DNA of 64,000 nt, taken from assembly GCA_963810095.1 (NCBI GenBank), contig CAWEMM010000006.1:1184001-1248000 (forward strand). Reading direction: 5' to 3'. The position numbers were made by a program, and so were the translations under genes. The notes beneath the pieces are model-generated. The model was not told the origin of the DNA, searched no databases, and saw only the letters and a program-made list of their open reading frames with translations. Shown piece after piece: positions 26,890 to 45,841 of the stretch (position 1 is its first letter; every line of letters starts with the position of its first letter). This stretch comes from an uncultured Chloroflexia bacterium (GTDB taxonomy: Bacteria; Chloroflexota; Anaerolineae; CG2-30-64-16).

Positions 26890-27050
26890 GCGTCACGCGT
26901 CCTTTCACTCCTACGAATCCCATTCTGATGTTAGCATGGGCGGCGGCGCCGGCGTCGTCATCTGTCTTCCCAAGAAAGCTCGTGGGCCATGATATAATCC
27001 GGCTCACCACGTTCCATCTGGCATATGAACACGATTTCGGAGATTCTGCG

Positions 27051-28219: not shown

Positions 28220-28270
28220 ACTAACCCGAAAATGGACACTGCACCCCGCGCTGCCGGACAACGCGGGATG

Positions 28271-28367
28271 AAATGGGACACTGATTGGACGGATTCGACT
28301 GATTATCAAGATCTCTGCCCAACGGACAGTGCAGATCAGTTCAATCAGTTGCATCAGCGTCCCATTT
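28271..28367. repeat. ~97-bp MITE-like element, family B, copy 3
   Basis: AAATGGGACACTGAT...ATCAGCGTCCCATTT. Confidence 0.75.
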
Positions 28368-28379
28368 TAGATCAGACAC

Positions 28380-30068: not shown

Positions 30069-30317
30069 ACATTCCCTCCCCTTGCCGCGAGCCGAAGTGC
30101 TCTGGGCGGCATGCGAAGAATACAGACCATTAAGCAGCGAAAAAACCAAGTTACACCAGGAACAGGTGGGGGCCTGTAATGCGCCTTATGAAAGAGCACT
30201 AACCCCCCAGTCTCGTAAAAACTCAAAAATACTCAAGTATTGACAAGGAAGCGCAACAGCGCGATAGTATCGCCATTGGCGCACCCTGTCACAATCCTCG
30301 GGGTAAGGAGTCCACGG

Positions 30318-32090
30318 TTGGAAACCTACCTGCGGCGCCAGGCGATCCTCGCAATCCTCCGGCAAACCGGCTGGGTCGACGTCGAAGACCTCGTCGTCAA
30401 ACTCTCCGCGAGCCCCAACACGATCCGCAACGACCTGAATGTGCTCGATACGGCAGGTTACCTGCGCCGGGTGCGCGGCGGGGCAGCCCAAGTCGAACCC
30501 CCGGCAGCAGTTAACCGCACGCCCGCGACCCTGCCGGGCCGGCAAGGTCCGCACGCCGCGGTCGAGCAGCGCCTGGCCCGCTGGGCCGCGGCGTTGGTCG
30601 ACGACGGCGACGCCATCGCCCTCGACAACAGCGATGCTTCCTACTACCTCGCCGCCGAGCTGCGCGAGCGCCGCCGCCTGACCGTGGTCGCCAGCGCGCT
30701 CGACACCGCGCTGCTCCTGGCCCAGAACCCTACGAACAAGGTTATTCTCGCCGCCACCACGGCCGGCCCAGACGGCCACTCGGTCGTCGGCCGCATCAAC
30801 CCCGACCTGCTCGACGGCTTCTATGTGGCACACTGCTTTGTGGGCTGCGCGGGGTTTTCCCTCGAACAGGGCCTGATGGAGAACGACGTGGACGTGGCGC
30901 TCGTCACGAAGCACCTGGTCGGCCTCTCCCGTGAGCTTGTCGCCATGCTCGATCACAGCAAGCTCGACCGCGCCGGCGCCAACCGCTTCGCCGGCGCAGC
31001 CATGATTGGGCGCCTCGTCGTGGACGACGCCATTCCCCGTGACGAAATCGCTGCGCTCACCCAAGCCGGCCTGTTTCCGGTCACCACCGTCGGCGAAGCC
31101 GGCGCAACCACGCATCCGCCCATGGCGGCCGCGCATCCGAAGCGGCGTTACCGCATCGGCTTCGCCAACCTTTCCCCACGCATCGACTTCGCCTGCGAAG
31201 TGCACGAAAGCCTGGCGCGGGCCGCCGCTCGCGTCCCCGAGGTTGAGCTGCTGGTCCTGGAAAACGAGCTCAGCCCCGAGAAGGCGCTGGAGAACGCCCA
31301 GTTGCTCGTCGATTCCGGTGTCCAGCTGGCGATCGAGTACCAGGTTGATTCGCGCGCCTCGAACGTGATTATGGATCGCTTCAATCGCGCCGGCATCCCT
31401 GCCATCGCCGTCGATATCCCCATGCCGGGCGCCACCTACTTCGGAAGCGATAACTACCGGGCGGGGTTCATGGCCGGCGAAGCGTTGGGCGCGTGGATTG
31501 CGCAGCACTGGGACGGCGAGCTCGACCTCCTGCTGGCCCTGCAGTCGGGCATGGTGGGCACGGTGAACGAGGCTCGCATGCAAGGACAGCGTGAAGGACT
31601 GGAATCGGTCGCCGGTCCCATCCCTGCCGGCCGCGTTCAGACGCTGGACGCGCCCGTTATCCTCGACGAAGTCATCCCATTCGTGGCCGCGCTGCTGCCC
31701 ACCTTGGGCCGCCGCACACGCATCGCGGCCGTCGGCCTCAACGACGACCAGTCCGTGGGCGCGCTGCTCGCCTTCGAGGCCGCGGGCCGGCTCGACCAGG
31801 TCATTGCAGTGGGCCAGGGCGCCGATCGCCTCGCCCGGGCGGCGTTGAGCCGGCCCGGTTTTCCCCTGATCGGTTCCACCATGTTTGCGCCCGAGAGCTA
31901 CGGCGAGCGCCTGCTCGAGCTGGCGCTCCGGATTCTCGACGGTCACCCCGTCCCTCCGGCCGTTTACTCGCGCCACGTTTTCATCACCCGCGACAACCTT
32001 GCCGAATACTACCCCAACTCCCACGACGTGCTGCCCGGCGCGGCACAGGTGCAAGCCCTGCTTGCCAGGACCAGAAGGAGCGAGCCATGA
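30318..32090 (+). CDS. DeoR-family regulator fused to a C-terminal type-I sugar-binding domain (paralog 1)
   Basis: AAGGAG RBS then TTG start; HTH (SPNTIRNDL...RVRGGA), DeoRC (DGDAIALD...DHSK), binding domain (IGFANLS, AVDIP, GSDNYRAG). Confidence 0.82.
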   Translation: METYLRRQAILAILRQTGWVDVEDLVVKLSASPNTIRNDLNVLDTAGYLRRVRGGAAQVEPPAAVNRTPATLPGRQGPHAAVEQRLARWAAALVDDGDAIALDNSDASYYLAAELRERRRLTVVASALDTALLLAQNPTNKVILAATTAGPDGHSVVGRINPDLLDGFYVAHCFVGCAGFSLEQGLMENDVDVALVTKHLVGLSRELVAMLDHSKLDRAGANRFAGAAMIGRLVVDDAIPRDEIAALTQAGLFPVTTVGEAGATTHPPMAAAHPKRRYRIGFANLSPRIDFACEVHESLARAAARVPEVELLVLENELSPEKALENAQLLVDSGVQLAIEYQVDSRASNVIMDRFNRAGIPAIAVDIPMPGATYFGSDNYRAGFMAGEALGAWIAQHWDGELDLLLALQSGMVGTVNEARMQGQREGLESVAGPIPAGRVQTLDAPVILDEVIPFVAALLPTLGRRTRIAAVGLNDDQSVGALLAFEAAGRLDQVIAVGQGADRLARAALSRPGFPLIGSTMFAPESYGERLLELALRILDGHPVPPAVYSRHVFITRDNLAEYYPNSHDVLPGAAQVQALLARTRRSEP

Positions 32091-32725
32091 CGTCGACGTT
32101 TGCCGAACTGCAGGAAGCAGTGATTGACGGGCAGAACAAGCTGACCGTCAAGCTGGTTGAACAGGCACTGGCCGAGGGCCAGCCCGCCGGCGACATTCTC
32201 AACAAGGGCTTGACGCCGGCCATGGAAGAAGTGGGCCGGCAATTCGAGCTCCGGGAGGTCTTCATCCCCGAGATGATGCTGGCCGCTCGGGCAATGCGGG
32301 AGGGCGTGGATGCGCTGAAGCCCTACCTCAAGCAGGGCGACGTGAAGCGGGTCGGCAAGGCGGTCATCGCCACGGTAGAGGGCGACCTGCACGACATCGG
32401 CAAGAACCTCGTCATCGTCATGGTCGAGGGCGCGGGCTTCGAGATTGTCGACCTCGGCGTCGACATCCCGGCCGCGGCCATCGTCGAGGCGCTGCGCCGG
32501 GAAAAGCCGGACGTGCTGATGCTCAGCGCGCTGATCACGAGCACGCTCAACTACATGCGGACGACGATCCAAACCATCGAGGAAGCCGGCCTGCGCAGCC
32601 AGGTCAAGATCCTGGTCGGCGGCGCGCCGGTCACCGAGTCGTTTGCGAAGCAGATCGGGGCAGATGGCTATGCGACCGACGCTGCGGGCGCGGCCCGGGT
32701 GGCGCTCCAGGTCATCGGGCAGTAA
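32087..32725 (+). CDS. Corrinoid (cobalamin-binding) methyl-carrier protein, MtaC/MttC/MtvC-like
   Basis: Helical cap (GLTPAMEEVG..FIPEM), EGDLHDIGKNLV (DxHxxG), LSAL, VGGAPV. Confidence 0.92.
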   Translation: MTSTFAELQEAVIDGQNKLTVKLVEQALAEGQPAGDILNKGLTPAMEEVGRQFELREVFIPEMMLAARAMREGVDALKPYLKQGDVKRVGKAVIATVEGDLHDIGKNLVIVMVEGAGFEIVDLGVDIPAAAIVEALRREKPDVLMLSALITSTLNYMRTTIQTIEEAGLRSQVKILVGGAPVTESFAKQIGADGYATDAAGAARVALQVIGQ

Positions 32726-32738
32726 GGGGAGGTGGACC

Positions 32739-33891
32739 ATGCTGAGTGAAATGACCCCGCGAGCGGATCGAAGCCGTCTTCAACCACCGGGAACCGGACC
32801 GGGTGGCCCTCTACGACATCGTCCACAACATCCCGATCCTGGAACACTTTGCGGGCGAGAAGATCACCGCCGCGAACGCGTTCGACACGTCGCTGCGCGG
32901 CATCGGCTGCGCGCTCGACCTGACCCGCTGCATCGCGATCCCCGGCTCGGGCGAACGTGTGCACAGCGCTTCCCAGGGGTTCGAGTACTCGTTCGAGTGG
33001 TGGACGTTCACGATCACGAAGCGGCCGTACCGGGACGCCGCGCACCTTGCCGAGTGCGTGCGCCGCGAAATCGACGGCATTTACGATGCGATGGCCCACG
33101 GGAGGCTGACGGCAGACGCCGCGCTGATCGCGCAGCTCACCGCGTCCGACGCCCAATCGCCCGAGGAGGTGCACGACATCTATGCGAAGATGTGCCGCGC
33201 ACTTCAGCCGTGCGTGCTCATCCACCCCGAGAGCATCGTCGGGCTGACCACGGCCTACGTGCGCGCAGGGTGGGAGCTTTTCATCTACCTGATGGGCGAC
33301 GATCCCGAGCTGGTGGACCGCTGGCTGACCTGCCTGGCCGACTACGAGGTGTGGCGCATCCACAAGATCGCCGACCGCGAGCTGAGCCCGGTGGCCCTGG
33401 TGGCCGACGACCTGGCGGGCAAGGGCGGCCTCTTCTTCTCGCCCAAGTGGCTGCGCAAGCACTGGCTGCCCCACACCCAGCGCTGCATCGACGCGTGGCA
33501 CGAGCACGGCATCAAAGTCGTGTTCCACTCGGACGGCGACAAGATGCTCCTCCTCGACGACCTGGTACAGGCCGGCATCGACGGGATCAACCCCATCGAG
33601 CCAACGTGCAACATGACGGTCGGCGGGGTGAAGAAGCTCTATCCCGACCTGGTGGTGACCAGCATGATCGACTGCGATCAGCTGCTGCCTTTCGGCGAGC
33701 CCGATGAAGTCGAAGCGGCGTGCAAGCAGGCCATCGACGACGGCGCGGCCGGCGGGTCGTTCCTGCTCGGCTCGAGCTCCGAGCTGCACCCCGACGCCAA
33801 GCTTGAAAACTTCCTCAAGATGCGCGAAGTGGCGCTGACGTACGGCCAATACAGCAACAAGGCCAACTGGGGCGCACCGTCCTGGCAGTAG
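32739..33891 (+). CDS. UroD/MtaA-CmuA-fold methyltransferase-like protein 1 (frameshift near 32767)
   Basis: MT.RERI.A...EPDRV N-terminus, ADDLAGK..LFFSP, HSDG, GIDGINPIE, GSSSELH; lacks the UroD RQAGR motif. Confidence 0.8.
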
Positions 33892-33916
33892 TTCGCACCA
33901 GCAAAGAGAGGTAAAC

Positions 33917-35155
33917 ATGCAGACCTGGGAAAAACAATACACCATCCTGGCGGAGGACCTCGCCGGCCGCGGGGTCGACGTGGAGGCTGTCAAGGCGGCC
34001 ATCAAGAACCTGGTCATCGAGATGCCTTCCTGGGCGGTCGGCAACTCGGGCACGCGCTACGGCGTGTTTCGCCAGCCCGGCGCCGCACGGACCATCTGGG
34101 AGAAGGTGGACGACTGCGCAGAAATCCAGCGCGTACTGGGCGTCTGCCCCGTCATGGCGAGCCACGTCAACTGGGACAAGACCGACGACGGCCGCTACGA
34201 GCCGGTCCGCGACTATGCGGCGCAGCGCGGGCTGCGCATCGGCACGGTGCACCCGAACACCTTCCTCGGCCAGGAGTACAAATTCGGCAGCGTCTGCAAC
34301 CCGTTCGCCGAAGTGCGCCAACAGACCATCGACCACTTTATCGACTGCGTCCGCATCACCCGCGAGTTCGGCTCCAAGTCTGTCGGTATCTGGCTGGCCG
34401 ACGGCACCAGCTACCCCGGGCAAGACCACCTGCGCAGCCGGAAACACCGGCTCTACGACGGGCTCAAGGCGCTGTACGACGCGCTCGACCCCGACATGAC
34501 CCTCTTCATCGAGTACAAATTCTTCGAGCCGTTCTTCTACACGACGGACCTCCAGGACTGGGGCATGTCGTTCACCATGTGCCAGCGCCTCGGCCCGCGC
34601 GCCAAGGTCCTGGTCGACCTGGGCCACCACGCGTCGGGCGTCAACGTCGAGCATATCGTCTCGATCCTGCTCGACGAGAACAAGCTGGGCGGCTTCCACC
34701 TTAACAACCGCAAGTACGCGGACGACGACCTGATGGCCGGCACGGTCAACCCGCTCGAGCTGTTCCTGATCTTCGACCAGATTGTCGATGCTACGCTCGA
34801 CCCCCACACGGCAGACACGGCCAAGGGCATCACTTACATGCTCGACCAGTCCCATAATATCGAGGGCAGCCTGGAAGGCATTATCCAGTCGGTGATGAAC
34901 ACCCAGACGGCGCACGCCAAGGCCCTGCTGGTCGACCGGGCCGCGCTGCGCGAGGCGCAGGAAGCGGGCGACGTGATCCTCGCGAACCGCACGCTGATGG
35001 CCGCGTATGACACTGACGTCCAGCCCTTGCTCAAGCAGGCCCGCGTCGAGATGGGCCGGCAGCCCGACCCGATCGTCGACTTCCGCGCCTGCGGTTACCT
35101 GCAGCACATTGCCGCCACCCGCACGGGCGCAGGGCTTGGCGCGCTGGGCGGATGA
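33917..35155 (+). CDS. rhaI: L-rhamnose isomerase (RhaI-type, xylose isomerase TIM barrel)
   Basis: EMPSWAVGNSGTRY, WLADGTSYPGQ, EYKFFEP, DLGHH, GGFHLN..KYADDDL, MLDQSHN. Confidence 0.85.
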   Translation: MQTWEKQYTILAEDLAGRGVDVEAVKAAIKNLVIEMPSWAVGNSGTRYGVFRQPGAARTIWEKVDDCAEIQRVLGVCPVMASHVNWDKTDDGRYEPVRDYAAQRGLRIGTVHPNTFLGQEYKFGSVCNPFAEVRQQTIDHFIDCVRITREFGSKSVGIWLADGTSYPGQDHLRSRKHRLYDGLKALYDALDPDMTLFIEYKFFEPFFYTTDLQDWGMSFTMCQRLGPRAKVLVDLGHHASGVNVEHIVSILLDENKLGGFHLNNRKYADDDLMAGTVNPLELFLIFDQIVDATLDPHTADTAKGITYMLDQSHNIEGSLEGIIQSVMNTQTAHAKALLVDRAALREAQEAGDVILANRTLMAAYDTDVQPLLKQARVEMGRQPDPIVDFRACGYLQHIAATRTGAGLGALGG

Positions 35156-35165
35156 GGAGGCGGGG

Positions 35166-35489
35166 ATGAAACGCGTCGGCATGACATGGCAGGTCCGCCC
35201 CGAGCACTGGGAGGAATACAAAGCCATCCATCTGAACCCCTGGCCCGAGCTCCTCACCGCCATCCAGGAGCACGGCATCCACAATTACAGCATCTTTGCC
35301 GTCGGCACCCGCGTCTTCGCGTACATGGAGGTCGACGGTGACGATGTCTATGCCGCACTCGGAGCCCTGGCGCAAACCGAGGTCAAGCAGCGCTGGGACG
35401 CCGAGGTAACGCTGTGGGTGGCGCCCGAAGCCGAGGCCGGGAGCGGCATCCAGTTCCTCGAGCTGGAGCGGATCTTCTATTGCCCCTGA
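35166..35489 (+). CDS. rhaM: L-rhamnose mutarotase
   Basis: EEYKAIH..PWPEL...GIHNYSIF...QRW. Confidence 0.85.
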   Translation: MKRVGMTWQVRPEHWEEYKAIHLNPWPELLTAIQEHGIHNYSIFAVGTRVFAYMEVDGDDVYAALGALAQTEVKQRWDAEVTLWVAPEAEAGSGIQFLELERIFYCP

Positions 35490-35496
35490 GGATCAA

Positions 35497-36579
35497 ATGA
35501 ACGCTACCACCCCACCCGCCGCCCGGGCGGCCGAGATGACTTCGCTCGAACGAGTGCAGGCCGTGCTGCGCCGCGAAGAGCCCGACCGCGTCCCTCACTT
35601 CGAGTGGGTGCACGATGCGGGCGTGACCGCAGCACTGACCGGCGGCGGCGCCTATTGGGACCTGGTCGACCGGCTCGACATCGACGGCGTGATGGTGGCG
35701 CCCGCCTACCGCAAGCAGCCGGCCGCCCCGGGCGCGCCCGCGGGCGCCCTGCTCGACGAATGGGGCGTGACCCGCATCGTCGCGCCCGACGGCTATGCGA
35801 TGGTCGTCGAGGACCACACCCCCATTCGCGACGAAGCGACGTTCGCAGCGTGGCAGCCGCCCGATCCTGACGACCCGTATCGTTATGAACCGCTCCGCCG
35901 CACCGTGGCTCGCTTCGGCGGCCGGCGCGCCATCATCCTCCAGATGCGCGACGTGTTCTCGGGCGTACGCGACTGCATGGGCTACGAGCGCGCGCTCGTG
36001 AACATGATCGAAAACCCCGCGTTGGTGACCGCGGTCGTGGAGCAGTGCGTCGACCACTACATCCGGGTGATCCGGCACGCCGCGCCCCTGGGCGTCACGA
36101 TCGTCTTCACGGGCGACGACATCGCGAACGCCCGCGGCCCGCTCTTCTCGCCGCGGCTCTGGCAGAAACTGCTCCTGCCCCACTACCGGCGGTTGGTCGC
36201 CGCCATCCATGACGCCGGCCTGTACCACTGGAAGCACTCGGACGGCAACCTCTACCCGTTCCTCGACAGCATCGTCGACGCAGGCACCGACGGCATCGAT
36301 CCGATCGATCCGATGGGGGGGATGGACCTGGCCACGGTCAAGCAGCGCTACGGGAGCCGGGTCGCGATCAAGGGCAATGTCGACCAGGTCGAGCTGCTCA
36401 CCGGTGGCACGCCCGAGGCCGTCGCCGCAAGCGTGCAGTCGTGCATCGCCGCGGCCGGCAGGGGCGGCGGCTACGTCTGTTCGTCCAGCAATTCGATCCA
36501 CTCGGGCGTGCGCCCCGATCTGTACCGCGCGATGGTCGAAGCCATCCACACCTACGGTCGCTATCCGTTGAGCTGGTAA
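35497..36579 (+). CDS. UroD/MtaA-CmuA-fold methyltransferase-like protein 2
   Basis: MTSLERV.A.LRREEPDRVP, DEWG, GDDIA..GPLFSP, HSDGN, IKGNVD, SSSNSIH. Confidence 0.82.
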   Translation: MNATTPPAARAAEMTSLERVQAVLRREEPDRVPHFEWVHDAGVTAALTGGGAYWDLVDRLDIDGVMVAPAYRKQPAAPGAPAGALLDEWGVTRIVAPDGYAMVVEDHTPIRDEATFAAWQPPDPDDPYRYEPLRRTVARFGGRRAIILQMRDVFSGVRDCMGYERALVNMIENPALVTAVVEQCVDHYIRVIRHAAPLGVTIVFTGDDIANARGPLFSPRLWQKLLLPHYRRLVAAIHDAGLYHWKHSDGNLYPFLDSIVDAGTDGIDPIDPMGGMDLATVKQRYGSRVAIKGNVDQVELLTGGTPEAVAASVQSCIAAAGRGGGYVCSSSNSIHSGVRPDLYRAMVEAIHTYGRYPLSW

Positions 36580-36588
36580 GGGGGAAAT

Positions 36589-38061
36589 ATGCCCAAGTAC
36601 GTCGCCATCGACCTGGGCGCCGAGAGCGGCCGGATCATCGTCGTCACGATGGATGCGGCCGCGGGCTGCGTGGCGCTCGACGAGGTGCATCGCTTTCCCA
36701 ATGGTCCGGTCCAGGTGGGCGGGAGCCTGCACTGGGACGTCTTGCGGCTGTGGAGCGAGATCAAGCTGGGTCTGCGCAAGGCGGCCGCGGCGCATCCCGG
36801 CGAGCTGCGTTCCGTCGCCGTCGACACCTGGGGCATCGACTACGCGCTCCTCGACCGCCGCGGCGCGCTGCTCGGCAACCCCTACGCCTACCGGGACCCT
36901 CGAACGAACGCGGTCTTCGCGCCCGCGGTGGAGAAGGCCGGGCGCTGGGACATCTACCGCCAGAGCGGCGGCGTCCAGTTCATGTCGATCAACACGCTCT
37001 ACCAGCTCTATGCGGCGGCCCTGCAGGGCGACCCGGCCCTGCAGGCTGCCGACACCTTCCTCATGCTGCCCGACCTCTTCGGCTACTGGCTGACCGGCGA
37101 GCGGGCGTGCGAATTCACCGATGCGACGACCACGCAGTTTTATGACGGCGCGGCCCGCCGCTGGGCGACCGGGCTGCTCGACTGCCTCGGGATCCCGACC
37201 GCCATGCTGCCGCCCGTCATCCTGCCCGGCACGCAGCTGGGCGTGCTGCGCGCGGACGTGGCCGAGGAGACCGGGCTGGACCGGCTGCCGGTCATCGCCG
37301 TTGCGGGCCACGACACGGCCTCCGCGGTGGTTGCCGTGCCGGCCGACAGCGGCCACTTCGCCTGGCTGAGCTCGGGCACATGGTCGCTGCTGGGCGGCGT
37401 ATCTGACGAGCCCATCGTGACCGAGCAGGCGCTGGCCTACAACTTCAGCAGCTACGGGGGCGCCGCAGGCCAGTTCCTGCCGTGGAAGAACATCATGGGC
37501 TTGTGGTTGGTCCAGGAGTGCCGGCGGGCGTGGAGCCGCGAGGGGCGCGAACTCTCCTACGACGAGCTGACCGAACTGGCTGCGGCCGCGCCGCCGTTTG
37601 GCTACCGGCTCGACCCGGACGACCCCGCGTTCCTTGCGCCGCCAAACATGCCCGAGGCCATTGCGGCCTACTGCCGGCGCACGGCCCAACGCCCGCCCGT
37701 GGGCCCCGGCGAAACCGTACGCGGGGTGCTCGAGAGCCTGGCCGTGTGCTACCGGCGCACGCTCGAGTGGTTATCTGAGCTGCAGGGGCGGCGGTTCGAC
37801 GCGCTCTACGCCATCGGCGGCGGCACGAAGAACAGCCTCCTGTGCCAGTTCACGGCCGACGCGTGCGGCGTGCCCCTGATTGCAGGCCCGGTGGAAGCCA
37901 CCGCCTTGGGCAACGCCGCGCTGCAGGGCGTGGCGCTGGGGGATTTCGGCTCGCTGGACGAGGCCCGCGGGGTGATTCGCCGCTGCGCCGAAGTGGTCGT
38001 CTATGAACCTGGTGCGGGCGGCGGCTGGGACGAGGCGTACGCGCGGTTCGCCGCTCGTTAG
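36589..38061 (+). CDS. rhaB: Rhamnulokinase (FGGY family)
   Basis: AIDLGAESGR, DTWGIDY, AYRD.RT, INTLYQL, GHDTASA, SSGTWSLLG, GPVEATALGN. Confidence 0.9.
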   Translation: MPKYVAIDLGAESGRIIVVTMDAAAGCVALDEVHRFPNGPVQVGGSLHWDVLRLWSEIKLGLRKAAAAHPGELRSVAVDTWGIDYALLDRRGALLGNPYAYRDPRTNAVFAPAVEKAGRWDIYRQSGGVQFMSINTLYQLYAAALQGDPALQAADTFLMLPDLFGYWLTGERACEFTDATTTQFYDGAARRWATGLLDCLGIPTAMLPPVILPGTQLGVLRADVAEETGLDRLPVIAVAGHDTASAVVAVPADSGHFAWLSSGTWSLLGGVSDEPIVTEQALAYNFSSYGGAAGQFLPWKNIMGLWLVQECRRAWSREGRELSYDELTELAAAAPPFGYRLDPDDPAFLAPPNMPEAIAAYCRRTAQRPPVGPGETVRGVLESLAVCYRRTLEWLSELQGRRFDALYAIGGGTKNSLLCQFTADACGVPLIAGPVEATALGNAALQGVALGDFGSLDEARGVIRRCAEVVVYEPGAGGGWDEAYARFAAR

Positions 38062-38104
38062 CAGCAGAGCGGCACTCGCAGGGGAGCAGGGCGGCTCAAA
38101 CGCA

Positions 38105-38159
38105 AGATTTCGAAAATCTCCAAAAATCTATTGACAGATTTCGAAATCTGCAGTAGGGT
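38105..38159 (+). promoter_or_regulatory. Promoter with two palindromic operator candidates
   Basis: TTGACA (38131-38136), 17 nt, TAGGGT; perfect palindrome CAGATTTCGAAATCTG (38135-38150) over the spacer and near-copy AGATTTCGAAAATCT (38105-38119). Confidence 0.75.
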
Positions 38160-38206
38160 GTAAGCGTCAACTTTCACTAATCCACTTGCTCAATCCGCGG
38201 GACCCT

Positions 38207-39912
38207 ATGACCAGCTTCCAGCGACGCCAGCGCCTGTTAAGCCTCCTGCGCGAGCAACCGGGAATCCGCGTTCCCGAGCTCGCCCGGCTCCTTGGCGTCT
38301 CGGAAGCAACCGTCCGCAACGATCTGAATACGCTGGCCGGCGCCGGGCAGATCACCCGGGTGCGCGGGGGCGCGGTGCCGGGCGACGCCAACAGTGTCCC
38401 GGTGCCTGACTACTCGGTGCGGGCTGCGGTCAACGAGTCCGCCAAGCTGCGCATGGCGCGGCTGGGCGGCCGACCTGGTGGAAGATGGGGACGCCATCCT
38501 GCTCGACGCCAGCTCGACTGTCTATCACATGGCCCAGTTCCTCGAAACCCGCCGCCGCCTGACCATCATCACCAACGGCGTCGAGGTCGGCCGTAAGCTG
38601 GCAGCCAACGGCGACCACAAGGTGATCCTGCTGGGCGGCGCGATGCGCCAGGACGGCGCTTCCGTGACCGGCCTGCTGAGCGGCTCGCTGCTGCGCACGC
38701 TCCGCATCAAGCTGGCGTTCCTCTCCTGCGCGGGCTTCGCACTCGACGCCGGCCTCACCGAGGTCGACATCGAAGAGGCGCAGCTCAAGAGCCAGATGAT
38801 CGCCTCCGCAGGCTCGGTCGTCGCGCTGATTGATTCGAGCAAGTTCGGGCGCCTCGCGCTCATGCCGTTTGCCCGCCTCGACCAGGTGTCGCACATCTTC
38901 ACGGACAATGATATCGACGCGGGCTGGGTCGAGCAGCTGCGCCAGGCCGGCGCCACCCTCACCGTCTGCGCCACCAACACGATCTCCACCTTCCCGCCGG
39001 GCGCGCAGGAACAAGAGCACTACCGCATCGGGTTTGCCAACCTGAGCGAGCAGATTCCCTTCGCCGTCGACGTGCGCCGCAGCCTGGAACGGGCGGCCCA
39101 GGATGCCGGAACGGTGGACCTGGTGGTGGCCGACAACCGGCTGGACGGCGAACACGCGATCACGGTCGCCGACCGCCTGCTCGCCCAGGGGCTGGACCTC
39201 CTGATCGAATACCAGGTCGATGCCCAGGCGGGCGAAGTCATCATGAGCCGGTGCCGGGCGGCGGGCGTCCCGGCCGTGGCAGTCGACATCCCGATGTTGG
39301 GCGCCACCTTCTTCGGCGTCGACAACTACCGGGCGGGTTACATGGCCGGCGAGGCGCTGGGCAAGTGGGTCTGCGCCCATTGGGGCGGCGAGCTCGACCG
39401 GCTCTTTGTGCTGGAAGAGCCCCGCACGGGCCAATTTGCAGCCACCCGCATGCGCGGCCAGTTGGAAGGCCTGCAAAACGCGGTCGGGCCGCTGCCCGAA
39501 GAGAAGATCGTGCACGTCGATTGCGGCAACACGGCGGAGACCACTGCAGCCCGGCTGCGGCCCCTGCTGCAAGACCCCACCGTAGCCGGCCTGCACCGGC
39601 TCGCCGCCGTTTCGATCAACGACGACGCTGCGATCGGCGCGATTGCTGCCGCGGCGCGCATTGCGGCGGGCAGCGGACCTCATCGTGGTGGGCCAGGGGG
39701 CCGACCGCCGGGCGCGCGAGGAGCTGCTGCGCCCCGACTCCCGGCTCGTCGGCTCCACTTCCTACATGCCCGAGCGCTACGGCGAGAAACTCATCCCGCT
39801 GGCGCTCAACATCCTGCGGCGCGCGCCCGTGCCGCCGGCGGTTTATGTGGAGCACCACTTCATTACTGCCGAAAACCTGGTCGACTTCTACCCGTCGCGC
39901 CTGCCGGAGTAA
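38207..39912 (+). CDS. DeoR-family regulator fused to a sugar-binding domain (paralog 2; frameshifts near 38460 and 39665)
   Basis: VSEATVRNDL..RVRGGA, DGDAILLDASST, IDSSKFG, IGFANLS, AVDIP, GVDNYRAG, PERYGE. Confidence 0.82.
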
Positions 39913-39968
39913 TCCGGACGCCGGAAGGCCCTTGCCCGTGTCCGGGCCGAACTGAGCTCGAGGAGACC

Positions 39969-41141
39969 ATGGCCAACCATTGCGAAACGATGACGTCCCG
40001 CGAACGGGTGCACATTGCCCTCAACCACGGCGAGCCGGACCGCGTCCCCATAGACCTGGGCGGCTTTCAGACCGGCATCCACCGCGTGGCCTACGAGGAT
40101 CTGCTCGGGTACCTCGGCGTCGACGAAGCGTTCGAGCTGCGCGACCCCGTCCAACAGTTAGCCGTTCCCTCCGAGCGCATCCTCGAATTGCTCCATGCCG
40201 ACTTCCGCTACGTCACCGCGCACGGGCCGGCCAGCTTCACGGGCGCCATCGAGGAAAACACGCGGGGCGGCAAGCTGTGGTACGACCTGCGCGACGAATT
40301 CGGCGTGGTTTGGTCCATGCCGGCCGACCAGATGCTCTACATGGACATCACGCATCACCCGCTGGCCCACGCAACCCTCGCCGACCTCGAGCGCTATCCC
40401 TGGCCCGACGGTAAGGACCCGACACGGTTCACCGGCGTGCGCGAGAAAGCGCTCGCCCTGCGCCAGCGCACGCCCTATGCGCTCTCGAGTGGGATCAGCG
40501 GCGTCACCTACGAAACCTGTTGGTATTTGCGCGGGCTCGAACGGTGGTTCATGGACATGGTGGAGGACCCCACGTTCTGCGAGGCGCTGATCGATCGCAC
40601 CGCGCAGTACTGGGTCGACTGGATCCCCGGCTTCCTCGCCGAGGTGGGCGATCTCCTGGACGTGATCATGATCGGCGACGACCTCGCGGGGCAGAACGGG
40701 CCGCTTTTCTCGCCCAAGTTCTACCGCCGTGTCGTCCGCCCTCGCCAGCAGCGGGTGGTGGATGCGATCAAGGCACGCACCAACGCCAAAATCTGGTACC
40801 ACACCTGCGGCGACTGCTCGGTCTACATCCCCGACCTGATCGACATGGGGGTGGACATTCTCAACCCCGTGCAGATCAGCGCCCGGGGCATGGACCCGGC
40901 AACGCTCAAGCGCAAGTACGGCGACAACCTGGTGTTCTGGGGCGGCGGCATCGACGCACAGCACATCCTGCCGTTCGCAACCCCCGCCGAGGTGCGCGCC
41001 GAGGTCCGCCGCAATCTCGAAATCTTCCGGCCGGGCGGCGGTTACATCTTCAACAACGTGCACAACATCCAGGCCGGCGTGCCGCCTCAGAACGTAATGG
41101 CCCTGTACGAGGCCGCCTACGAGTTCGGCTTCTACGAATAA
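39969..41141 (+). CDS. UroD/MtaA-CmuA-fold methyltransferase-like protein 3
   Basis: GAGGAG RBS; MTSRERV.IALNHGEPDRVPID, DEFG, GDDLAGQNGPLFSP, HTCG, LNPVQ, FWGG, NNVHNIQ. Confidence 0.85.
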   Translation: MANHCETMTSRERVHIALNHGEPDRVPIDLGGFQTGIHRVAYEDLLGYLGVDEAFELRDPVQQLAVPSERILELLHADFRYVTAHGPASFTGAIEENTRGGKLWYDLRDEFGVVWSMPADQMLYMDITHHPLAHATLADLERYPWPDGKDPTRFTGVREKALALRQRTPYALSSGISGVTYETCWYLRGLERWFMDMVEDPTFCEALIDRTAQYWVDWIPGFLAEVGDLLDVIMIGDDLAGQNGPLFSPKFYRRVVRPRQQRVVDAIKARTNAKIWYHTCGDCSVYIPDLIDMGVDILNPVQISARGMDPATLKRKYGDNLVFWGGGIDAQHILPFATPAEVRAEVRRNLEIFRPGGGYIFNNVHNIQAGVPPQNVMALYEAAYEFGFYE

Positions 41142-41205
41142 AGGCGGCCGCCCAGAACGGCGCGGCGACCTGCCGGCGGGCCGGCAGGAACATGAAGGAG
41201 GGCTG

Positions 41206-42733
41206 ATGACCGAGGAAATGGCCCCGCTGCTGAGCATGAAAGGCGTCAGCCGGCGGTTCCCAGGGGTGCTGGCGCTGGACCACGTCGATTTCGACCTGCG
41301 AGCGGGCGAAGTGCACGCACTGGTAGGCGAAAACGGCGCGGGCAAATCCACGCTGATCAATATCCTCGCGGGGGTGCACCCACCATCCGGCGGCGTGCTC
41401 GAGCTGGCCGGCAAGCCGACAGTGCTGCCCGACCCGGTCAGCGCGCAGCGGGCGGGTATCAACGTCATCTTCCAGGAATTCAACCTGCTGCCCCACCTCA
41501 GCGTCGCGGAGAACATCTTCCTCAACCGTGAGCCGACCCGCGGGCCGCGCATCGATTGGCCGGCCCTCCACCGGCGCACCGCCGAAGTGCTCAAGCAGCT
41601 CAAGATCGACTTGAACCCGCGTACAGTCGTGCGCGAGCTGCCCGTCGCGCAACAGCAGTTGGTCGAGATCGCCCGTGCGCTGGCCTTCGACGCGAAGGTC
41701 GTCGTGATGGACGAACCCACCGCGGCGTTGTCAGAGGTTGAGATCGGCCGGCTGATGGAGCTCGTCCGTTCGCTGGCCGGCCGCGGGGTGGGCGTGATCT
41801 ACGTGTCGCACAAGCTCTCCGAGGTGTTCACGGTGGCAGATCGGATCACCGTGCTGCGCGACGGCAAACGCATCCTCACTGCGCCGCGCAGCGAGCTCAC
41901 CGAGCGCCAGGTGGTCACCGCGATGGTGGGCCGCGAGTTGGCCTATACGAAGTGCCCGCCGCGCCGCCCGGGCGAGCTCGTGCTTTCGGTGCGCGACTCT
42001 TTCCTCGGGCCGGGCCGTTCAGGGCGTGTCGTTTGACCTGGCGGCCGGCGAGGTCGTCGGCCTGGCCGGCCTGATGGGCAGCGGCGGCCTCGAGTTGGTC
42101 GAAGCCCTGTTTGGCTTGCGGCCGATTACGGGCGGCGAGGTCCTGCTCGAGGGCAAGCCGCTGCTCGCGCGGGGCCCGCGCCAAGCCATCCGGGCGGGGT
42201 TGGCGTACGTGCCGGATGACCGGAAGGGCGCGGGCCTCTTGCCCGACCTCTCCGTCCAGCACAACATCAGCATCGGCGTCATCGAGCGACTGCGCCGGGG
42301 CCCGATCATCGACGTGCGGCGGGAGAGCGAGCTGATGACCGAGTACGGCGGGAAACTCTCGATCCGCTATGCGAGCCCGAAGCAGTTCGTCAGCGACCTG
42401 AGCGGCGGGAACCAGCAAAAAGTGATCCTGGCCCGTTCGCTCGCCGAGCAGTGCAAGGTGCTGCTGCTGGCCGAGCCCACCCGCGGCGTCGACGTGGGCG
42501 CGAAGCAGGAGATTTACGCACTCATCGACATGCTGCTCGAGCAGGGCATCGCAATCGTCCTGCAATCGTCAGAACTTCCCGAACTCATTCGGCTGGCCGA
42601 GCGCTGCCTCGTCTTCGCCGGCGGGCAGATGCGCGGCGAGCTGGCGGGCGCCGAGTTCACGCAGCCCAACGTCATGGCCCTCGCCACGGGACTCGATCCG
42701 TCCCACGTCGTGCAGGAAAGTGAGGTGGCATAG
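41206..42733 (+). CDS. Sugar ABC transporter ATP-binding protein, RbsA-like (frameshift near 42000-42025)
   Basis: GENGAGKST, MDEPT, SHKL; second half LSGGNQQK, EPTRGVDVGAK. Confidence 0.9.
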
Positions 42734-43717
42734 GTGGAGCGCATCCGTGCAACCGCGGGGCGGCTCTGGCGCTCGTACAGCGTCGCGGTCGTCGTGATCG
42801 TCTTGGGCGTCATCCTGGCGATCCTGTCGCCCCGGTTCCTGCTGGTCGGCAACTTGCTGAACGTCTTGACGAACGCTTCCGTGATCGCGATCGTTGGCCT
42901 GGGGATGACCCTGGCGATCGCGTCCGGCAACTTCGACTTGTCGGTCGGCGCCACCGCCGCCTTCGCAGCCTGCATTGCCTTCAGCATTGTGCCCGTGCTG
43001 GGTGTTCCGGCCGGGATCCTGGTCGGGCTGCTGGTGGGCGCCGCGATCGGCCTGGCCAACGGCATCATCATCACCGAGCTGCGCGTCAACGCCTTCATCG
43101 CCACGCTGGGCGTCGGCAGCGTCGTGCGCGGGGCCACCCTGCTCTTCACCAGCGGCCGCGACATGTATCTGCAGGGCTACCCCGGCTACAAGGTTCTGTC
43201 GGGCGGGCACATCCTGGGCATCCCCATGCCCGTGATCATGGCGCTGCTGCTGGCCGCGGTGCTGGGCCTCGTCATCGCCCACACCCGCTTCGGCCGCTAC
43301 ATCCTGGCGGTGGGCAGCAACGCCGCGACGGCCCGGCGTTCCGGTGTGCCGGTCAACCGGGTGCTCTGGGGCATCTTTGCGATCGTCGGCGCGACCGCCG
43401 CGCTGAGCGGGCAGATCTACAGCGCCCAGGTGGTGACCGCCAGCGCCCGCATCGCGGTCGGTCTCGAGTTGTCCGCCATCGCGGTCGTCGTCGTGGGCGG
43501 CACTCCGCTCACCGGCGGGCGGGCGTCGCTGATCGGCACCCTGCTCGGCAGCCTGCTGATCGCCATGATCAACAACGGGCTCAACCTGCTGAACGTCTCG
43601 GTGCTCTACCAGCAGGTGACCATCGGCCTGCTCCTCCTGTTCACGCTCGCCATCAGCGTGGAGCGGAAGCGCAAGGTGACCGGTCCCCTGCCGCAACAGG
43701 GCCGGAGGGCGGCATGA
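42734..43717 (+). CDS. Sugar ABC transporter permease, RbsC-like
   Basis: FDLSVG, FIATLG, T.FGR...AVGSN, ELSAIA.VVVGGT. Confidence 0.9.
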   Translation: MERIRATAGRLWRSYSVAVVVIVLGVILAILSPRFLLVGNLLNVLTNASVIAIVGLGMTLAIASGNFDLSVGATAAFAACIAFSIVPVLGVPAGILVGLLVGAAIGLANGIIITELRVNAFIATLGVGSVVRGATLLFTSGRDMYLQGYPGYKVLSGGHILGIPMPVIMALLLAAVLGLVIAHTRFGRYILAVGSNAATARRSGVPVNRVLWGIFAIVGATAALSGQIYSAQVVTASARIAVGLELSAIAVVVVGGTPLTGGRASLIGTLLGSLLIAMINNGLNLLNVSVLYQQVTIGLLLLFTLAISVERKRKVTGPLPQQGRRAA

Positions 43718-44717
43718 CGACAGCAGCTGACACCCGCAGCAGAGGCAGGCGGACCACTCGCAACTGGGCCCTCTTGTGGGAGAAATACGGCATTACCGCC
43801 GTTCTGGTGGTCGCCTGGATCTTCGCCGCGCTGTTCACGCCGAACTTTGCGACCGTCGACAACCTCGCCAACGTGCTCCGCTCGGCCAGCTTCGTGGGCA
43901 TCGCCGCGGTCGGCATGACGATTGCGATCATCTCCGGGACGTTCGACCTCTCGGTCGGGTCCACCCTCGCGCTGGCCGCGGTGGCATGCGTCTGGACGGG
44001 GTCGCGCTACGGTGTGGTCGCTTCGGTCGCCGCCGGCTTGCTGGCCGGCTTGGCCGTCGGCGCCATCAACGGCCTGCTCGTCCGCGGGTGCGCATCCCCG
44101 CGTTCATCGCAACCCTGGGCATGCTGTTCGTGGTCAGCGGTTTCACGCTGATTCTCACCGGCGGGCAGGCCTACCGCTACAACGCACCAAACTTCGTGTG
44201 GCTGGGCAACGGGGATGTATTGGGGTTCCCCGTGCCGTTCCTCGTTTTTCTGATCTGCGCCCTCTTGGGCGAAGGCGTGCTGCGCCGCACGGTGTTTGGC
44301 CGGCACGTGTTTGCCACGGGCAGCAACCCGACCGCCGCCGAGATCGCAGGCGCACCGGTGCAGCGCATCTCGGGCCTGGTGTTCGTGGTCGTGGGCCTGT
44401 TCGCCGGCCTGGCCGCAGTCCTGCTGGCCGGCCGGTTGTACTCGGCCGGCCCCGGCCTCGAGCCGGGCTTCGAGCTGCGAGTGATCGCAACAGTCGTGCT
44501 CGGTGGCACCCGCTTGCAAGGTGGCCGCGGCGGTATGCTGGGCACCGTGTCGGCCGCTATCCTGTTTGCCACGCTGGCTAACGTGCTGAACCTGTTCCAC
44601 GCCGATGCTTTCTGGCAGCGCGTCGTGGAGGGCCTCGTGCTCCTGCTCGCCCTCTCGATCGAAGGCATCCGGCAGCGAGTCGAGGAGCGCATGAGCCGGC
44701 GCACGCAAGGAGACTAA
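43714..44717 (+). CDS. Sugar ABC transporter permease (frameshift near 44085)
   Basis: FDLSVG, PAFIATLG, FGRHVFATGSN, ELRVIATVVLGGT. Confidence 0.88.
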
Positions 44718-44799
44718 GAAGGAGGTGTACGAACCCCCAAATCGGTCACAATGTCGTGCTTATACAAACGTTCCCACATTCCCCAAGGAGGAAAACAGA

Positions 44800-45787
44800 A
44801 TGTCTCGCAAGGTTTGGATGTTCGTCCTCGTCGCCCTGTTGATCGCGGCCGTCATGCTGACGAGCTGCGCCCCCCAGGCCGCGCCGCAAGCGGCTGCGCC
44901 CGCCGCAAAGAAGAAGATCGGCTTCTCGGTCTACGACATGCAATACGGGTTCTTCCAGGACATGGAGAAGGGCACCCGTGAGGCCGCGCAGGCGGCAGGG
45001 TACGACTACGTGCTGGTCGACCAGAAGTCGAGCGAGTCGACGATGGTCTCCGCGACGCAGGACCTGATCAACCAGGGCATCGAGCGCGCTGATCATCTCG
45101 CCGGTCAAGCCCGATGCCATGGGGCCCCTGGTCGATGCGGCCAAGAAGAAGGGCATCCCGGTCGTGGTCGACGACATCGGCGGCGGCGGCACGGCGTATG
45201 ACGTCATCGTCATCTCGAACAACGCCGAGGGCGGCGTGATGGCGGCCGAGCACCTGGACAAACTGATCCAGAAGACGGGCAACACGTCGAAGAAGGTTGC
45301 GTCGATCACGTGCGACCCGACCGCCGTGTACGCGTGGCAGCGTAACGTCAACTTCGAGAAGAAAATCAAGGAAATGGGCTACACCGTCGTCGCGTCCCTT
45401 AACGGCAACAGCAAGCAGGAAGAAGGCTACCGCCTGATGAAGGACGTCCTGTCGGCGAACCCCGACGTAGCGGGGATCTTCTCCTGCAACGATCCGATGG
45501 CCGTCGGCGCAGCCCAGGCCATCGCCGACAGCGGCAAGAGCGGCGTCAAGGACATCCCGGTGGTTGGCTTCAACGCAGACGAGATCGCGCTGAAGGCCAT
45601 CAAGGAAGGCTCGATGGCCGCCACCGTCCAGCAGATCCCGTACGACATGGGCAAGATGACCGTCGCGTTGGCCACGAAGCTCATGAACGGCGAGAAGCTG
45701 AAGTTCGACAAGGAAGCCGAGCGCGAGATTTACGTCCCCGTGAAGCTCATCACGGCCGAGAACGTGGACACCCTGCTGAAGAAGTAA
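44800..45787 (+). CDS. Sugar ABC substrate-binding lipoprotein, RbsB-like (frameshift near 45083)
   Basis: Lipobox LTSC; GIPVV..D, SNN..GG, NDPMAVGA, VVGFN, TVQQ.P. Confidence 0.88.
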
Positions 45788-45804
45788 GCTCTCTCAGCGT
45801 TAGG

Positions 45805-45841
45805 GCCGCCCGATCATGATTTGGTCGGGCGGCTTTCTTTT
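45805..45841 (+). terminator. Intrinsic terminator closing the sugar locus
   Basis: GCCGCCCGATCA-TGATT-TGGTCGGGCGGC followed by TTTCTTTT. Confidence 0.75.

Follow-up and report, generated by a model that had tools for sequence, protein, structure and literature searches.

A candidate corrinoid-dependent system for O-demethylation of methylated rhamnose in an uncultured Chloroflexota bacterium

Introduction

Anaerobes remove the methyl groups of aryl methyl ethers with O-demethylases composed of a methyltransferase I, a corrinoid protein, a methyltransferase II, and an activating enzyme, as exemplified by the Odm and Vdm systems of Acetobacterium dehalogenans and by MtvABC of Moorella thermoacetica. 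Methyl ethers are also found on sugars, where they block catabolism, and methylated rhamnose, fucose, galactose, xylose, and mannose occur in plant, algal, and bacterial glycans. In this study, we describe a locus of an uncultured Chloroflexia bacterium (GenBank assembly GCA_963810095.1) in which genes for a corrinoid protein (CP) and three methyltransferase candidates (MT1, MT2, and MT3) lie among genes for L-rhamnose catabolism and sugar import. The locus is part of a stretch of 64,000 nucleotides of contig CAWEMM010000006.1 (positions 1,184,001 to 1,248,000), called the window below, and positions are given in the numbering of the window. On balance, we favor the reading that this locus would carry out corrinoid-dependent O-demethylation of methylated rhamnose, with the activase, the pterin methyltransferase, and the aldolase encoded elsewhere. 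The substrate, the position of the methyl group, and the direction of transfer are what we infer from gene context alone.

For sugars, a cytochrome P450 monooxygenase system that oxidatively demethylates 6-O-methyl-D-galactose has been described (PMC6292453), and this kind of demethylation needs O2 and releases formaldehyde (PMC10033563, PMC9400963). According to the available part of a 2025 paper, the demethylation of methylated galactose in anaerobic bacteria is still to be discovered (PMC12316285). An earlier note on this DNA, made by a model from the sequence alone, knew of no characterized B12-dependent sugar O-demethylase, and our literature search, which left most subscription journals outside its reach, agrees with it in that the systems it turned up were those for aryl, amine, betaine, and halomethane substrates and those of methanogens, with no corrinoid-dependent sugar demethylase among them. 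The available part of a preprint on mlp clusters (PMC10418091) likewise makes no mention of sugars or rhamnose.

Results

Organization of the locus

The locus occupies positions 30240-45836 of the forward strand and forms a single co-oriented array of two units. Every gene that the earlier note had listed was recovered by Pfam and NCBIfam scans, in the order and on the strand given there. Unit 1 runs from the regulator Reg1 through CP, MT1, RhaI, RhaM, and MT2 to RhaB, and unit 2 comprises the regulator Reg2, MT3, and a sugar ATP-binding cassette (ABC) importer with an ATPase, two permeases, and a binding protein, as follows.

30318..32090, + strand: Reg1, regulator with a DeoR helix-turn-helix (HTH) domain, a DeoRC sensor, and a periplasmic-binding-protein-type sugar domain (Pfam HTH_DeoR 52, DeoRC 100, Peripla_BP_4 72 bits)
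32087..32725, + strand: CP, MtaC/MtgC-type corrinoid (B12) methyl-carrier protein, 212 amino acids (Pfam, NCBIfam)
32739..33891, + strand: MT1, divergent URO-D/MtaA-fold protein with an H-S-D motif (Pfam URO-D 42.9 bits)
33917..35155, + strand: RhaI, L-rhamnose isomerase of the xylose-isomerase-like TIM-barrel type (NCBIfam TIGR02635 521.7 bits)
35166..35489, + strand: RhaM, L-rhamnose mutarotase (Pfam rhaM 80.5 bits; start read from the sequence)
35497..36579, + strand: MT2, candidate URO-D/MtaA-fold methyltransferase with an H-S-D motif (Pfam URO-D 101.9 bits)
36589..38061, + strand: RhaB, rhamnulokinase of the FGGY family (TIGR02627 443.1 bits; Pfam FGGY_N, FGGY_C)
38207..39955, + strand: Reg2, Reg1 paralogue, 42% identity over the main high-scoring segment pair (HSP), two frameshifts (Pfam)
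39969..41141, + strand: MT3, URO-D/MtaA-fold protein with an MtaA-like H-T-C motif (Pfam URO-D 82 bits)
41206..42733, + strand: ATPase of the sugar ABC importer, two ABC domains, one frameshift (Pfam, NCBIfam)
42734..43717, + strand: ABC permease 1, BPD_transp_2 (Pfam 141 bits; NCBIfam ribose/arabinose-type models, below their cut-offs)
43714..44717, + strand: ABC permease 2, one frameshift (Pfam)
44725..45787, + strand: periplasmic sugar-binding protein, Peripla_BP_4, not of the RhaS type, one frameshift (Pfam, NCBIfam)

The tight spacing that had been described was also seen, with an overlap of 4 nucleotides between Reg1 and CP and gaps of 7 to 25 nucleotides between the other genes of unit 1, including a gap of 13 nucleotides between CP and MT1 after correction of the MT1 start and one of 10 nucleotides between RhaI and RhaM (RhaM ATG at 35166). 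The proposed division into two transcription units fits a spacer of about 145 nucleotides between RhaB and Reg2 that holds a TTGACA element and a perfect palindrome.

Recurrence of the linkage in other genomes

Judged by its gene neighborhoods, the arrangement of the locus is more than a product of chance, because the linkage of methyltransferase, CP, and rha genes recurs in other genomes. The earlier note had proposed a survey of this kind and had named a lack of conserved synteny as a result that would refute its proposal; the outcome was the opposite, with MT2 found together with RhaI in 7 of 12 orthologue loci. These come from a scan of species genomes for MT2 that gave 80 loci, of which 77 were counted and 3 were dropped (best HSP <300 amino acids). 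Among the 12 loci with at least 60% identity to MT2, 5 of which have less than 5 kb of flank on one side, CP was fused to MT2 or within 1.5 kb of it in 10 and RhaM was present in 6, a Reg1-like regulator in 9, and an ABC ATPase in 7. At 47 to 60% identity (25 loci), CP was within 1.5 kb in 1 locus (6 anywhere), RhaI in none, and an FGGY kinase within 3 kb in 5, and below 47% identity (40 loci) the corresponding counts were 0 for CP (1 anywhere), 1 for RhaI, and 20 for the FGGY kinase. A quick IQ-TREE analysis placed MT2 in a clade of 13 rows with an SH-like approximate likelihood ratio test (SH-aLRT) support of 100, in which 8 members have rha genes and 5 have an adjacent CP only.

The link between CP and MT2 extends to single polypeptides. 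Of 120 MT2 matches listed, 43 have the architecture B12-binding_2 plus URO-D plus B12-binding (about 610 amino acids) and 2 more combine URO-D with B12-binding, and CP::MT2 fusions were confirmed in six loci (L009, L012, L013, L015, L018, and L043). A recurring module (L013, L014, L015, L018, and L043) consists of a DeoR regulator, CP::MT2, sometimes a DUF455-like gene, a regulator that joins DeoR to a periplasmic-binding-protein (PBP) domain, a binding protein, an ATPase, one or more permeases, sometimes an alpha/beta hydrolase, RhaI, and RhaM. Locus L019 has the order RhaM-MT2-RhaB, the same as in the window. In the sister clade, an MT2-like gene lies with an ABC importer, a xylose-isomerase-like enzyme, an FGGY kinase, a class II aldolase, CP, and a PfkB kinase in Pelolinea (L039) and with an ABC importer, an FGGY kinase, and CP in L036, and the single distant locus with RhaI (L071, Acetivibrionales, Bacillota) combines RhaI, an MT2-like gene, and an FGGY kinase.

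Two further observations concern these relatives. A 438-amino-acid DUF455-like (ferritin-like) protein that is absent from the window is encoded directly beside CP::MT2 at L014:7597-8916 and L018:6880-8196. In one genome (G200, L137), a 55% identical MT2 relative is flanked on one side by a GH38 alpha-mannosidase and a CUT1 importer and on the other by FGGY and PfkB kinases, a context that hints that the neighboring MT2 clade might serve a mannose-type sugar.

For MT1, orthologues lie directly 3' of a CP orthologue in both metagenome loci found (2/2), one with the order Reg1 (76% identity), CP (81%), MT1 (89%) and the other (L152) with CP (74%), MT1 (81%, intact at 384 amino acids), RhaM (77%). 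MT3 orthologues were found in five loci at 70 to 77% identity, one of them between two GH78 alpha-L-rhamnosidases (L147). Another (L146) has as its neighbors the non-homologous RhaA, an isomerase of the E. coli type, together with a DeoR regulator and two genes for class II aldolases, and the remaining three lie beside ABC importers.

These counts bear on the possibility that the methyl-transfer genes landed in a rhamnose locus by rearrangement and have no functional link to it. Chance neighbors are likelier than usual in this genome, which has 44 URO-D and 22 B12-binding matches; the rha operon of the nearest relative is free of MT and CP genes, and gene order varies between relatives. The linkage nevertheless recurs across gene orders, genomes, and two phyla, and it does so separately for MT2 (7/12), MT1 (2/2), and MT3 (2/5), and the short gaps and the overlap within unit 1 indicate cotranscription. 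As far as genomic context can tell, the synteny counts already largely refute a chance insertion, which we consider very improbable.

The position of an MT3 orthologue between two rhamnosidases would also fit a different substrate, namely, methoxylated aglycones of plant rhamnosides (e.g., flavonoid rhamnosides), on which a classical aryl methyl ether O-demethylase would act under joint regulation with rhamnose catabolism, since one substrate yields both. Known O-demethylases of the UroD superfamily use aryl methyl ethers, as stated in the available part of PMC10418091, and the host genome has about 40 URO-D paralogues as well as three GH78 matches, one of which is separated from a URO-D gene by about 7 kb. 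Against this, MT2, MT3, and their relatives are linked to importers of the monosaccharide type (BPD_transp_2/RbsABC-like) or to sugar CUT1 importers, MT2 sits between the mutarotase and kinase genes, half of the distant MT2 relatives (20/40 loci) have an FGGY sugar kinase within 3 kb, and an aromatic-catabolism gene was seen in none of the annotated loci. An aryl ether substrate is therefore unlikely in our judgment.

In the reverse control, which started from RhaI, this gene was present in 52 of the 201 genomes of the class, the host (G000) included, and 40 RhaI loci from 39 genomes were compared. URO-D genes adjoin RhaI in one of them (L091), which has RhaD, RhaB, RhaM, RhaI, two URO-D genes beside RhaI, and one more on the far side of the importer, and 2 more loci have an MT3-like gene 6.5 to 8 kb away; CP was found in none of the 40. 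Since the rhamnose pathway occurs without the methyltransferases while the MT2/CP module usually adjoins rha genes, the methyltransferases look like an accessory step that would feed the rhamnose pathway. In the nearest relative (G187, same family), a second RhaI paralogue adjoins an orthologue of the unit-2 importer of the window (65 to 76% identity).

Folds and motifs of the methyltransferase candidates

All three candidates match Pfam URO-D above the cut-off. The AlphaFold2 (AF2) models of MT2 and MT1 (predicted local distance difference test [pLDDT] scores of 92.3 and 92.2) have MtaA (4ay7) as their best fold match in the PDB, ahead of uroporphyrinogen decarboxylases, with template-modeling scores (TMq) of 0.76 for MT2 and 0.62 for MT1 at sequence identities of 14 to 16%. 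MtaA was also the sole methyltransferase retrieved by a search of the PDB with a profile of MT2 relatives. In the profile alignment, the zinc motif of MtaA, HICGN, lies opposite KHSDGN of MT2. Across the paralogues, the His of this metal motif is invariant and is followed two residues later by Asp in MT1, MT2, and most relatives and by Cys in MT3. The second metal-site segment, in which the MtaA type has a downstream Cys, reads SSSNS in MT2, GSSSE in MT1, and NNVHN in MT3. Because H-S-D replaces H-x-C, the catalytic metal site of MT1 and MT2 is uncertain.

The three candidates differ in how widely they occur. Among the candidates scored, 860 were related to MT2 at E<=0.001, the number of MT2 cluster representatives at this threshold is 9,403, and MT1 has five close relatives (64 to 89% identity) in a large protein collection. 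The 120 MT3 matches listed are all 71 to 90% identical and about 389 amino acids long, and this conservation of the MT3 family, unlike that of MT1 and MT2, hints that MT3 may have one widespread, fixed substrate or partner.

The corrinoid protein and its partners

CP combines the B12-binding_2 (PF02607, 75.1 bits) and B12-binding (PF02310, 96.9 bits) domains, both above the Pfam cut-offs, in the layout of methyltransferase-cognate corrinoid proteins of the MtaC/MtbC/MtgC type (TIGR02370), in which a helical cap precedes the Rossmann-type domain that binds B12. The base-off/His-on fingerprint is present as DLHDIG at residues 100-105, SAL at 147-149, and GG at 178-179, with the spacing (DxHxxG...SxL...GG) known from MetH, and D100, H102, G105, S147, G178, and G179 are invariant in 24 relatives. 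Its best NCBIfam matches are MtgC, pyl_corrinoid, MtbC, and MetH, and it stays below every curated cut-off of that collection (pyl_corrinoid 193.7 versus 215.3 bits, MtgC 206 versus 370, and MtbC 175.5 versus 350); against the MtaC model, it scores 126 bits. Going by these family models, MT1, MT2, MT3, and CP are members of their superfamilies and of no characterized family.

A modeled complex of CP with MT3 scored 0.77, and the best control scored 0.00. Of 80 solved complexes, 58 reached this mark, as did 2 of 110 mismatched pairs, in a calibration that holds only roughly here, because the alignments were our own, and in which close cousins of the true partner can pass too. The model runs have at least 69% of contacts in common, with a partner pLDDT of at least 89, and the contacts join the cap helix of CP (residues 56-68) and CP residues 107-111, just after DxHxxG, to residues 191-199 and 242-251 of MT3.

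These proteins could be thought to serve some purpose other than methyl transfer, in that the URO-D proteins would catalyze another step of deoxy-sugar metabolism (isomerization, epimerization, or decarboxylation) or the corrinoid domain would sense a signal or act in redox chemistry. The UroD superfamily includes decarboxylases and cobalamin-independent enzymes, according to the part of PMC10418091 that was available, and the fold matches of MT1 and MT2 include UROD and MetE; both proteins are without the H-x-C motif of MtaA, and most URO-D paralogues of the host, like the MT3 orthologues in all five loci, have no corrinoid gene nearby. Set against this, the cap and Rossmann module of CP with its DxHxxG motif is of the methyltransferase-cognate type, a corrinoid module is covalently fused to MT2 orthologues, MtaA exceeds UROD as the structural match of both MT1 and MT2, and the rhamnose pathway is complete without any such step in 37 of the 40 RhaI loci. 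We regard a function outside methyl transfer as quite unlikely.

Rhamnose enzymes, importer, and regulators

Against the equivalog models, the rhamnose enzymes have scores of 521.7 bits for RhaI (TIGR02635; cut-off, 531.35), 443.1 bits for RhaB (TIGR02627; cut-off, 527.95), and 55 bits for RhaM against TIGR02625 (cut-off, 99.6), for which Pfam rhaM gives 80.5 bits versus a cut-off of 23.4. That RhaI and RhaB fall below their equivalog cut-offs would suit a system that removes the methyl group from an S-methyl (methylthio-) or N-methyl sugar, or from another methylated 6-deoxyhexose, such as methyl-fucose, handled by relatives of RhaI and RhaB. The corrinoid methyltransferases of the UroD superfamily include S-demethylases, as the available part of PMC10418091 has it, the sister clade (L039) uses a different set of isomerase, kinase, and aldolase, and a locus on contig 7 of the host pairs a fucose-isomerase-like gene with two URO-D genes. 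RhaI orthologues (72 to 79% identical), however, accompany the MT2 orthologues, RhaM and a rhamnulokinase-like kinase are present, MT3 orthologues adjoin rhamnosidases and the non-homologous RhaA, and a gene of the methionine-salvage type was seen in none of the annotated loci. Such a donor is improbable in our view.

The C-terminal 222 amino acids of the binding protein score 96.6 bits against RbsB and 36.5 bits against RhaS, whose cut-off is 342 (NCBIfam); given so low a RhaS score for this fragment, the protein may have a ligand other than plain rhamnose. The presence of an importer, a mutarotase, an isomerase, and a kinase, all of them catabolic partners, also speaks to the direction of methyl transfer. 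Corrinoid methyl transfer is reversible in principle, and a methyl-corrinoid could methylate rhamnose or a rhamnoside for a cell-envelope glycan, yet no glycosyltransferase or nucleotide-sugar gene was found in the locus by Pfam, and we hold a biosynthetic role to be extremely improbable.

In both regulators, a full DeoR repressor (HTH plus DeoRC) is fused to a second, PBP-type sugar domain, which makes proteins of about 570 to 590 amino acids. Such two-sensor regulators accompany the CP::MT2 module in relatives as well (L012, L014, L015, and L018).

Host genome

The host genome comprises 6.13 Mb in 16 contigs (about 65% G+C, 88.5% complete, 4.8% contamination), and the window lies on a contig of 1.92 Mb; the relatives that we found are labeled Chloroflexota (Caldilineales, Anaerolineae, and "Chloroflexia"). 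With its URO-D and B12-binding matches, the corrinoid methyl-transfer repertoire of the host is unusually large. The trans-acting parts that are absent from the locus exist elsewhere in the genome, which has three RACo activases (PF14574), four pterin-binding PF00809 matches, and seven class II aldolase matches (e.g., C6:348398-349863), all of them outside the locus. In L148, a pterin-binding gene is clustered with a homocysteine-methyltransferase domain, a corrinoid domain, and RACo, and the gene for acetyl-CoA synthase (C6:918651) has a RACo gene and one for a pterin-binding protein in its vicinity. A pterin-binding protein is also encoded at C6:66484-67467.

Two further host loci join URO-D genes to sugar metabolism. 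The one on contig 7 (447000-460000, L149) holds a LacI-type regulator, a URO-D gene, a RhaM-like mutarotase, a second URO-D gene, a creatininase-family gene, a CUT1 importer, a fucose-isomerase-like gene, and an FGGY kinase (47% identical to RhaB), with no corrinoid gene nearby, and by its gene content it may be a methyl-fucose counterpart of the locus in the window. The other has five URO-D genes together with an FGGY kinase and sugar regulators. As a separate observation, a creatininase-family (PF02633) gene adjoins URO-D genes in deoxyhexose loci of three genomes (L091:8261-9052, L132:10478-11392, and L149:8205-8981), and its product might be a deacylase for decorated sugars.

Transcription signals and neighboring genes

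Three elements outside the coding regions may delimit the two units.

30240..30268, + strand: promoter-like site upstream of Reg1, TTGACA, 17 nucleotides, GATAGT (10/12 matches)
38105..38170, + strand: promoter-like TTGACA of unit 2 with a perfect 14-bp palindrome, AGATTTCGAAATCT (38136-38149), a candidate operator (read from the sequence)
45802..45836, + strand: terminator-like hairpin that closes unit 2, with a 15-bp stem, 9 G-C pairs, and a T-rich tail, just 3' of the stop codon of the binding protein

Between 29800 and 46300, two promoter-like sites were seen versus 1.8 expected from shuffled sequences, which makes them weak evidence when taken alone. The palindrome, a candidate for an operator of the DeoR type that would serve unit 2, overlaps TTGACA, has an imperfect copy about 30 nucleotides upstream, and is unique in the 6.1-Mb genome at up to one mismatch. 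A common operator for Reg1 and Reg2 was considered and rejected, as the two upstream regions share no word of 9 or more nucleotides. An Rfam scan of 26000-48000 at E<=0.1 gave no match, and thus no cobalamin riboswitch was found in this interval.

Directly upstream of the locus (25765-30149) lie a 6-phosphogluconolactonase-like beta-propeller lactonase, an aldo-keto reductase followed by a 4Fe-4S dicluster open reading frame (ORF), and a divergent glucose-6-phosphate isomerase. A cluster of B12-binding plus radical-SAM genes at the start of the window (1590-3035) and immediately before it on the contig (C6:1176691-1186000), several of them split by frameshifts, is apparently unrelated to the rhamnose locus.

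Frameshifts and assembly

The locus contains at least six frameshifts, which the earlier note had overlooked, one in MT1, two in Reg2, and one each in the ATPase, permease 2, and the binding protein. The MT1 shift is of 1 nucleotide near codon 8 (about 32745-32760) and places the N terminus, with its true ATG at 32739, in another frame. Those of Reg2 lie at about 38350-38460 and at 39626-39682, and the others lie at about 41998 (ATPase), 44083 (permease 2), and 45084 (binding protein). Contigs from four other public runs (X1, X2, X4, and X6) were compared over 38100-45800. Contigs of X2, X4, and X6 have one base fewer at 45082-45085 (one is a 292-nucleotide X4 contig with one further difference), one X6 contig (depth, 2.9) has one base fewer at 41998, and a 151-nucleotide X1 contig, identical except for a single gap, spans 39535-39686 and thus the second Reg2 site. 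Because they coincide with one-base insertions or deletions (indels) in the contigs of other runs, at least three of the six frameshifts are probably assembly (consensus) errors.

Pseudogenization of unit 2 was judged unlikely, given the near-identical contigs that are indel-free at three sites and the split genes elsewhere in the window. Long homopolymers were rejected as the cause of the indels, since none occurs at the frameshift sites. Splits also affect other corrinoid genes of the host genome. At 50059-56476, an adenine deaminase, a Bmp-type binding protein, an ABC ATPase, and a permease appear to be truncated or split, which fits indel errors throughout the assembly.

Discussion

Our findings lead us to propose that a methylated 6-deoxyhexose, most likely O-methyl-L-rhamnose, would be taken up alongside plain rhamnose by the monosaccharide-type ABC importer of unit 2. 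MT2 and MT1, and probably also MT3, would bind the sugar and transfer its O-methyl group to the Co(I) corrinoid of CP, yielding methyl-Co(III) and free rhamnose, which RhaM, RhaI, and RhaB would convert to rhamnulose-1-phosphate for cleavage by a class II aldolase encoded elsewhere. From CP, the methyl group would pass to tetrahydrofolate by the action of a pterin-binding methyltransferase from elsewhere or of one of the three MTs, and methyl-tetrahydrofolate might then be used by acetyl-CoA synthase, oxidized, or spent on methionine synthesis, while oxidized CP would be re-reduced by RACo-type activases that are likewise encoded elsewhere. Reg1 and Reg2 would sense the sugar through their added sugar-binding domains, and the three MTs may serve different methyl positions or two half-reactions.

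A considerable number of observations weigh against this proposal. Known O-demethylase substrates release a phenolate, whereas here an alkoxide, which is a far poorer leaving group, would have to be released, and MT1 and MT2 have H-S-D in place of the zinc-binding H-x-C of MtaA. The curated MtaA/CmuA cut-off (TIGR01463, 235.4 bits) is reached by none of the three, with 72 bits for MT2, 44.7 for MT3, and no match for MT1. According to Pfam, the locus has no aldolase, activase, or pterin-binding methyltransferase. It also holds the only RhaI found in the genome (tblastn gave no other copy), and it must therefore also serve plain rhamnose, so that its rha genes are not reserved for a methylated one. 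URO-D genes are missing from most rhamnose loci of the class, and the nearest relative, G187, has a Reg1-like regulator, an ABC importer, RhaI, RhaM, and RhaB without an MT or CP gene within 10 kb, its 58% identical MT2 homologue lying elsewhere beside an alcohol dehydrogenase and a DeoC-like aldolase. Within the 12 closest MT2 loci, three (L009, L012, and L017) show no rha gene despite at least 5 kb of downstream flank, the distant MT1 relatives (41 to 45% identity, 7 loci) lie in mixed contexts, and CP is absent from all five loci with an MT3 orthologue. Six frameshifts interrupt the locus, three of them matched by contigs of other runs. Moreover, three genes for haem-copper oxidase subunit I (COX1) make an O2-dependent route possible for this organism, which by its gene content looks facultative and not strictly anaerobic, and CobS (PF02654) was not found in the 88.5%-complete genome, which is not evidence of B12 auxotrophy.

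The earlier note had proposed that the locus imports O-methyl-deoxyhexoses, moves their methyl group onto cobalamin, and feeds the free sugar into the rhamnose pathway, and this interpretation comes out supported in part. The conserved linkage, the MtaA-like folds, and the CP-MT3 model argue for it, and the host that is not a strict anaerobe, the lack of a methyltransferase II, an activase, and an aldolase in the locus, and the majority of rhamnose loci without MTs argue against it. We nevertheless continue to favor O-demethylation of a methylated rhamnose.

More tentatively, and with somewhat less than even confidence, we suggest that MT1, MT2, and MT3 could be the founding members of an uncharacterized and very large UroD-superfamily branch made up of corrinoid-dependent demethylases of sugar (alkyl) methyl ethers, in which each paralogue would be devoted to one methylated sugar (methyl-rhamnose here; methyl-fucose, methyl-mannose, and others elsewhere). 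If this is true, then methylated glycans would be unblocked independently of O2 in Chloroflexota, Planctomycetota, Verrucomicrobiota, Kiritimatiellia, Spirochaetota, and Clostridia, and their methyl groups would enter the folate and Wood-Ljungdahl pathways of one-carbon (C1) metabolism with no release of formaldehyde. Should our reading of the locus be right, carbohydrate ethers would join aryl ethers, methanol, amines, and thiols as donors in B12-dependent methyl transfer, thousands of proteins annotated as "uroporphyrinogen decarboxylase family" would gain a function, and glycan degradation would be tied to C1 metabolism in sediments and soils. The locus offers concrete candidates in one carrier, three enzymes, and a binding protein, with a guess at the substrate that is narrowed by the flanking rhamnose enzymes.

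The plain L-rhamnose operon of G187 is what the locus resembles when its methyl-transfer genes are set aside. Both have the same type of regulator and the same order of RhaI (83% identity), RhaM (76%), and RhaB (67%), and the window differs by the CP-MT1 and MT2 inserts and by an appended second unit, which holds MT3 and a further importer.

By the way in which it would work, the locus comes closest to the corrinoid-dependent O-demethylases of anaerobes, and among solved structures MtaA is the closest. With the aryl O-demethylases, the locus shares a substrate methyltransferase of the UroD superfamily and an MtaC-type corrinoid protein (as far as the available part of PMC10418091 describes them), and the host genome encodes activases of the RACo type as well as a pterin-binding methyltransferase. 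It differs from them in that its context points to a sugar (alkyl) ether, methyltransferase II and the activase lie outside the locus, its proteins reach no curated family cut-off, MT1 and MT2 carry H-S-D, and MT2 orthologues are often single-chain CP::MT proteins. The methanogen systems of MtaA, MtbA, and MtsA with MtaC and MtbC are similar in that no structure matches MT2 and MT1 better than MtaA, CP resembles MtbC and MtaC, and MT3 has an H-x-C motif. In contrast to these coenzyme M systems, the locus is bacterial, its proteins are only 14 to 16% identical to MtaA, no coenzyme M context was seen, and its genes lie within a pathway of sugar catabolism. With the P450 sugar demethylase, it has the proposed role in common, i.e., removal of a sugar O-methyl group that blocks catabolism, but the proteins and the chemistry are unrelated, no P450 family match was found by Pfam in the 14 ORFs of the locus that were scanned, and in the window the methyl group would stay on the corrinoid. 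The only characterized route of removal that we found, as described in the available part of PMC6292453, is that O2-dependent P450 system, and we are inclined to think that what the locus adds to the known systems is a corrinoid methyl-transfer system with a new class of substrate and a new wiring.

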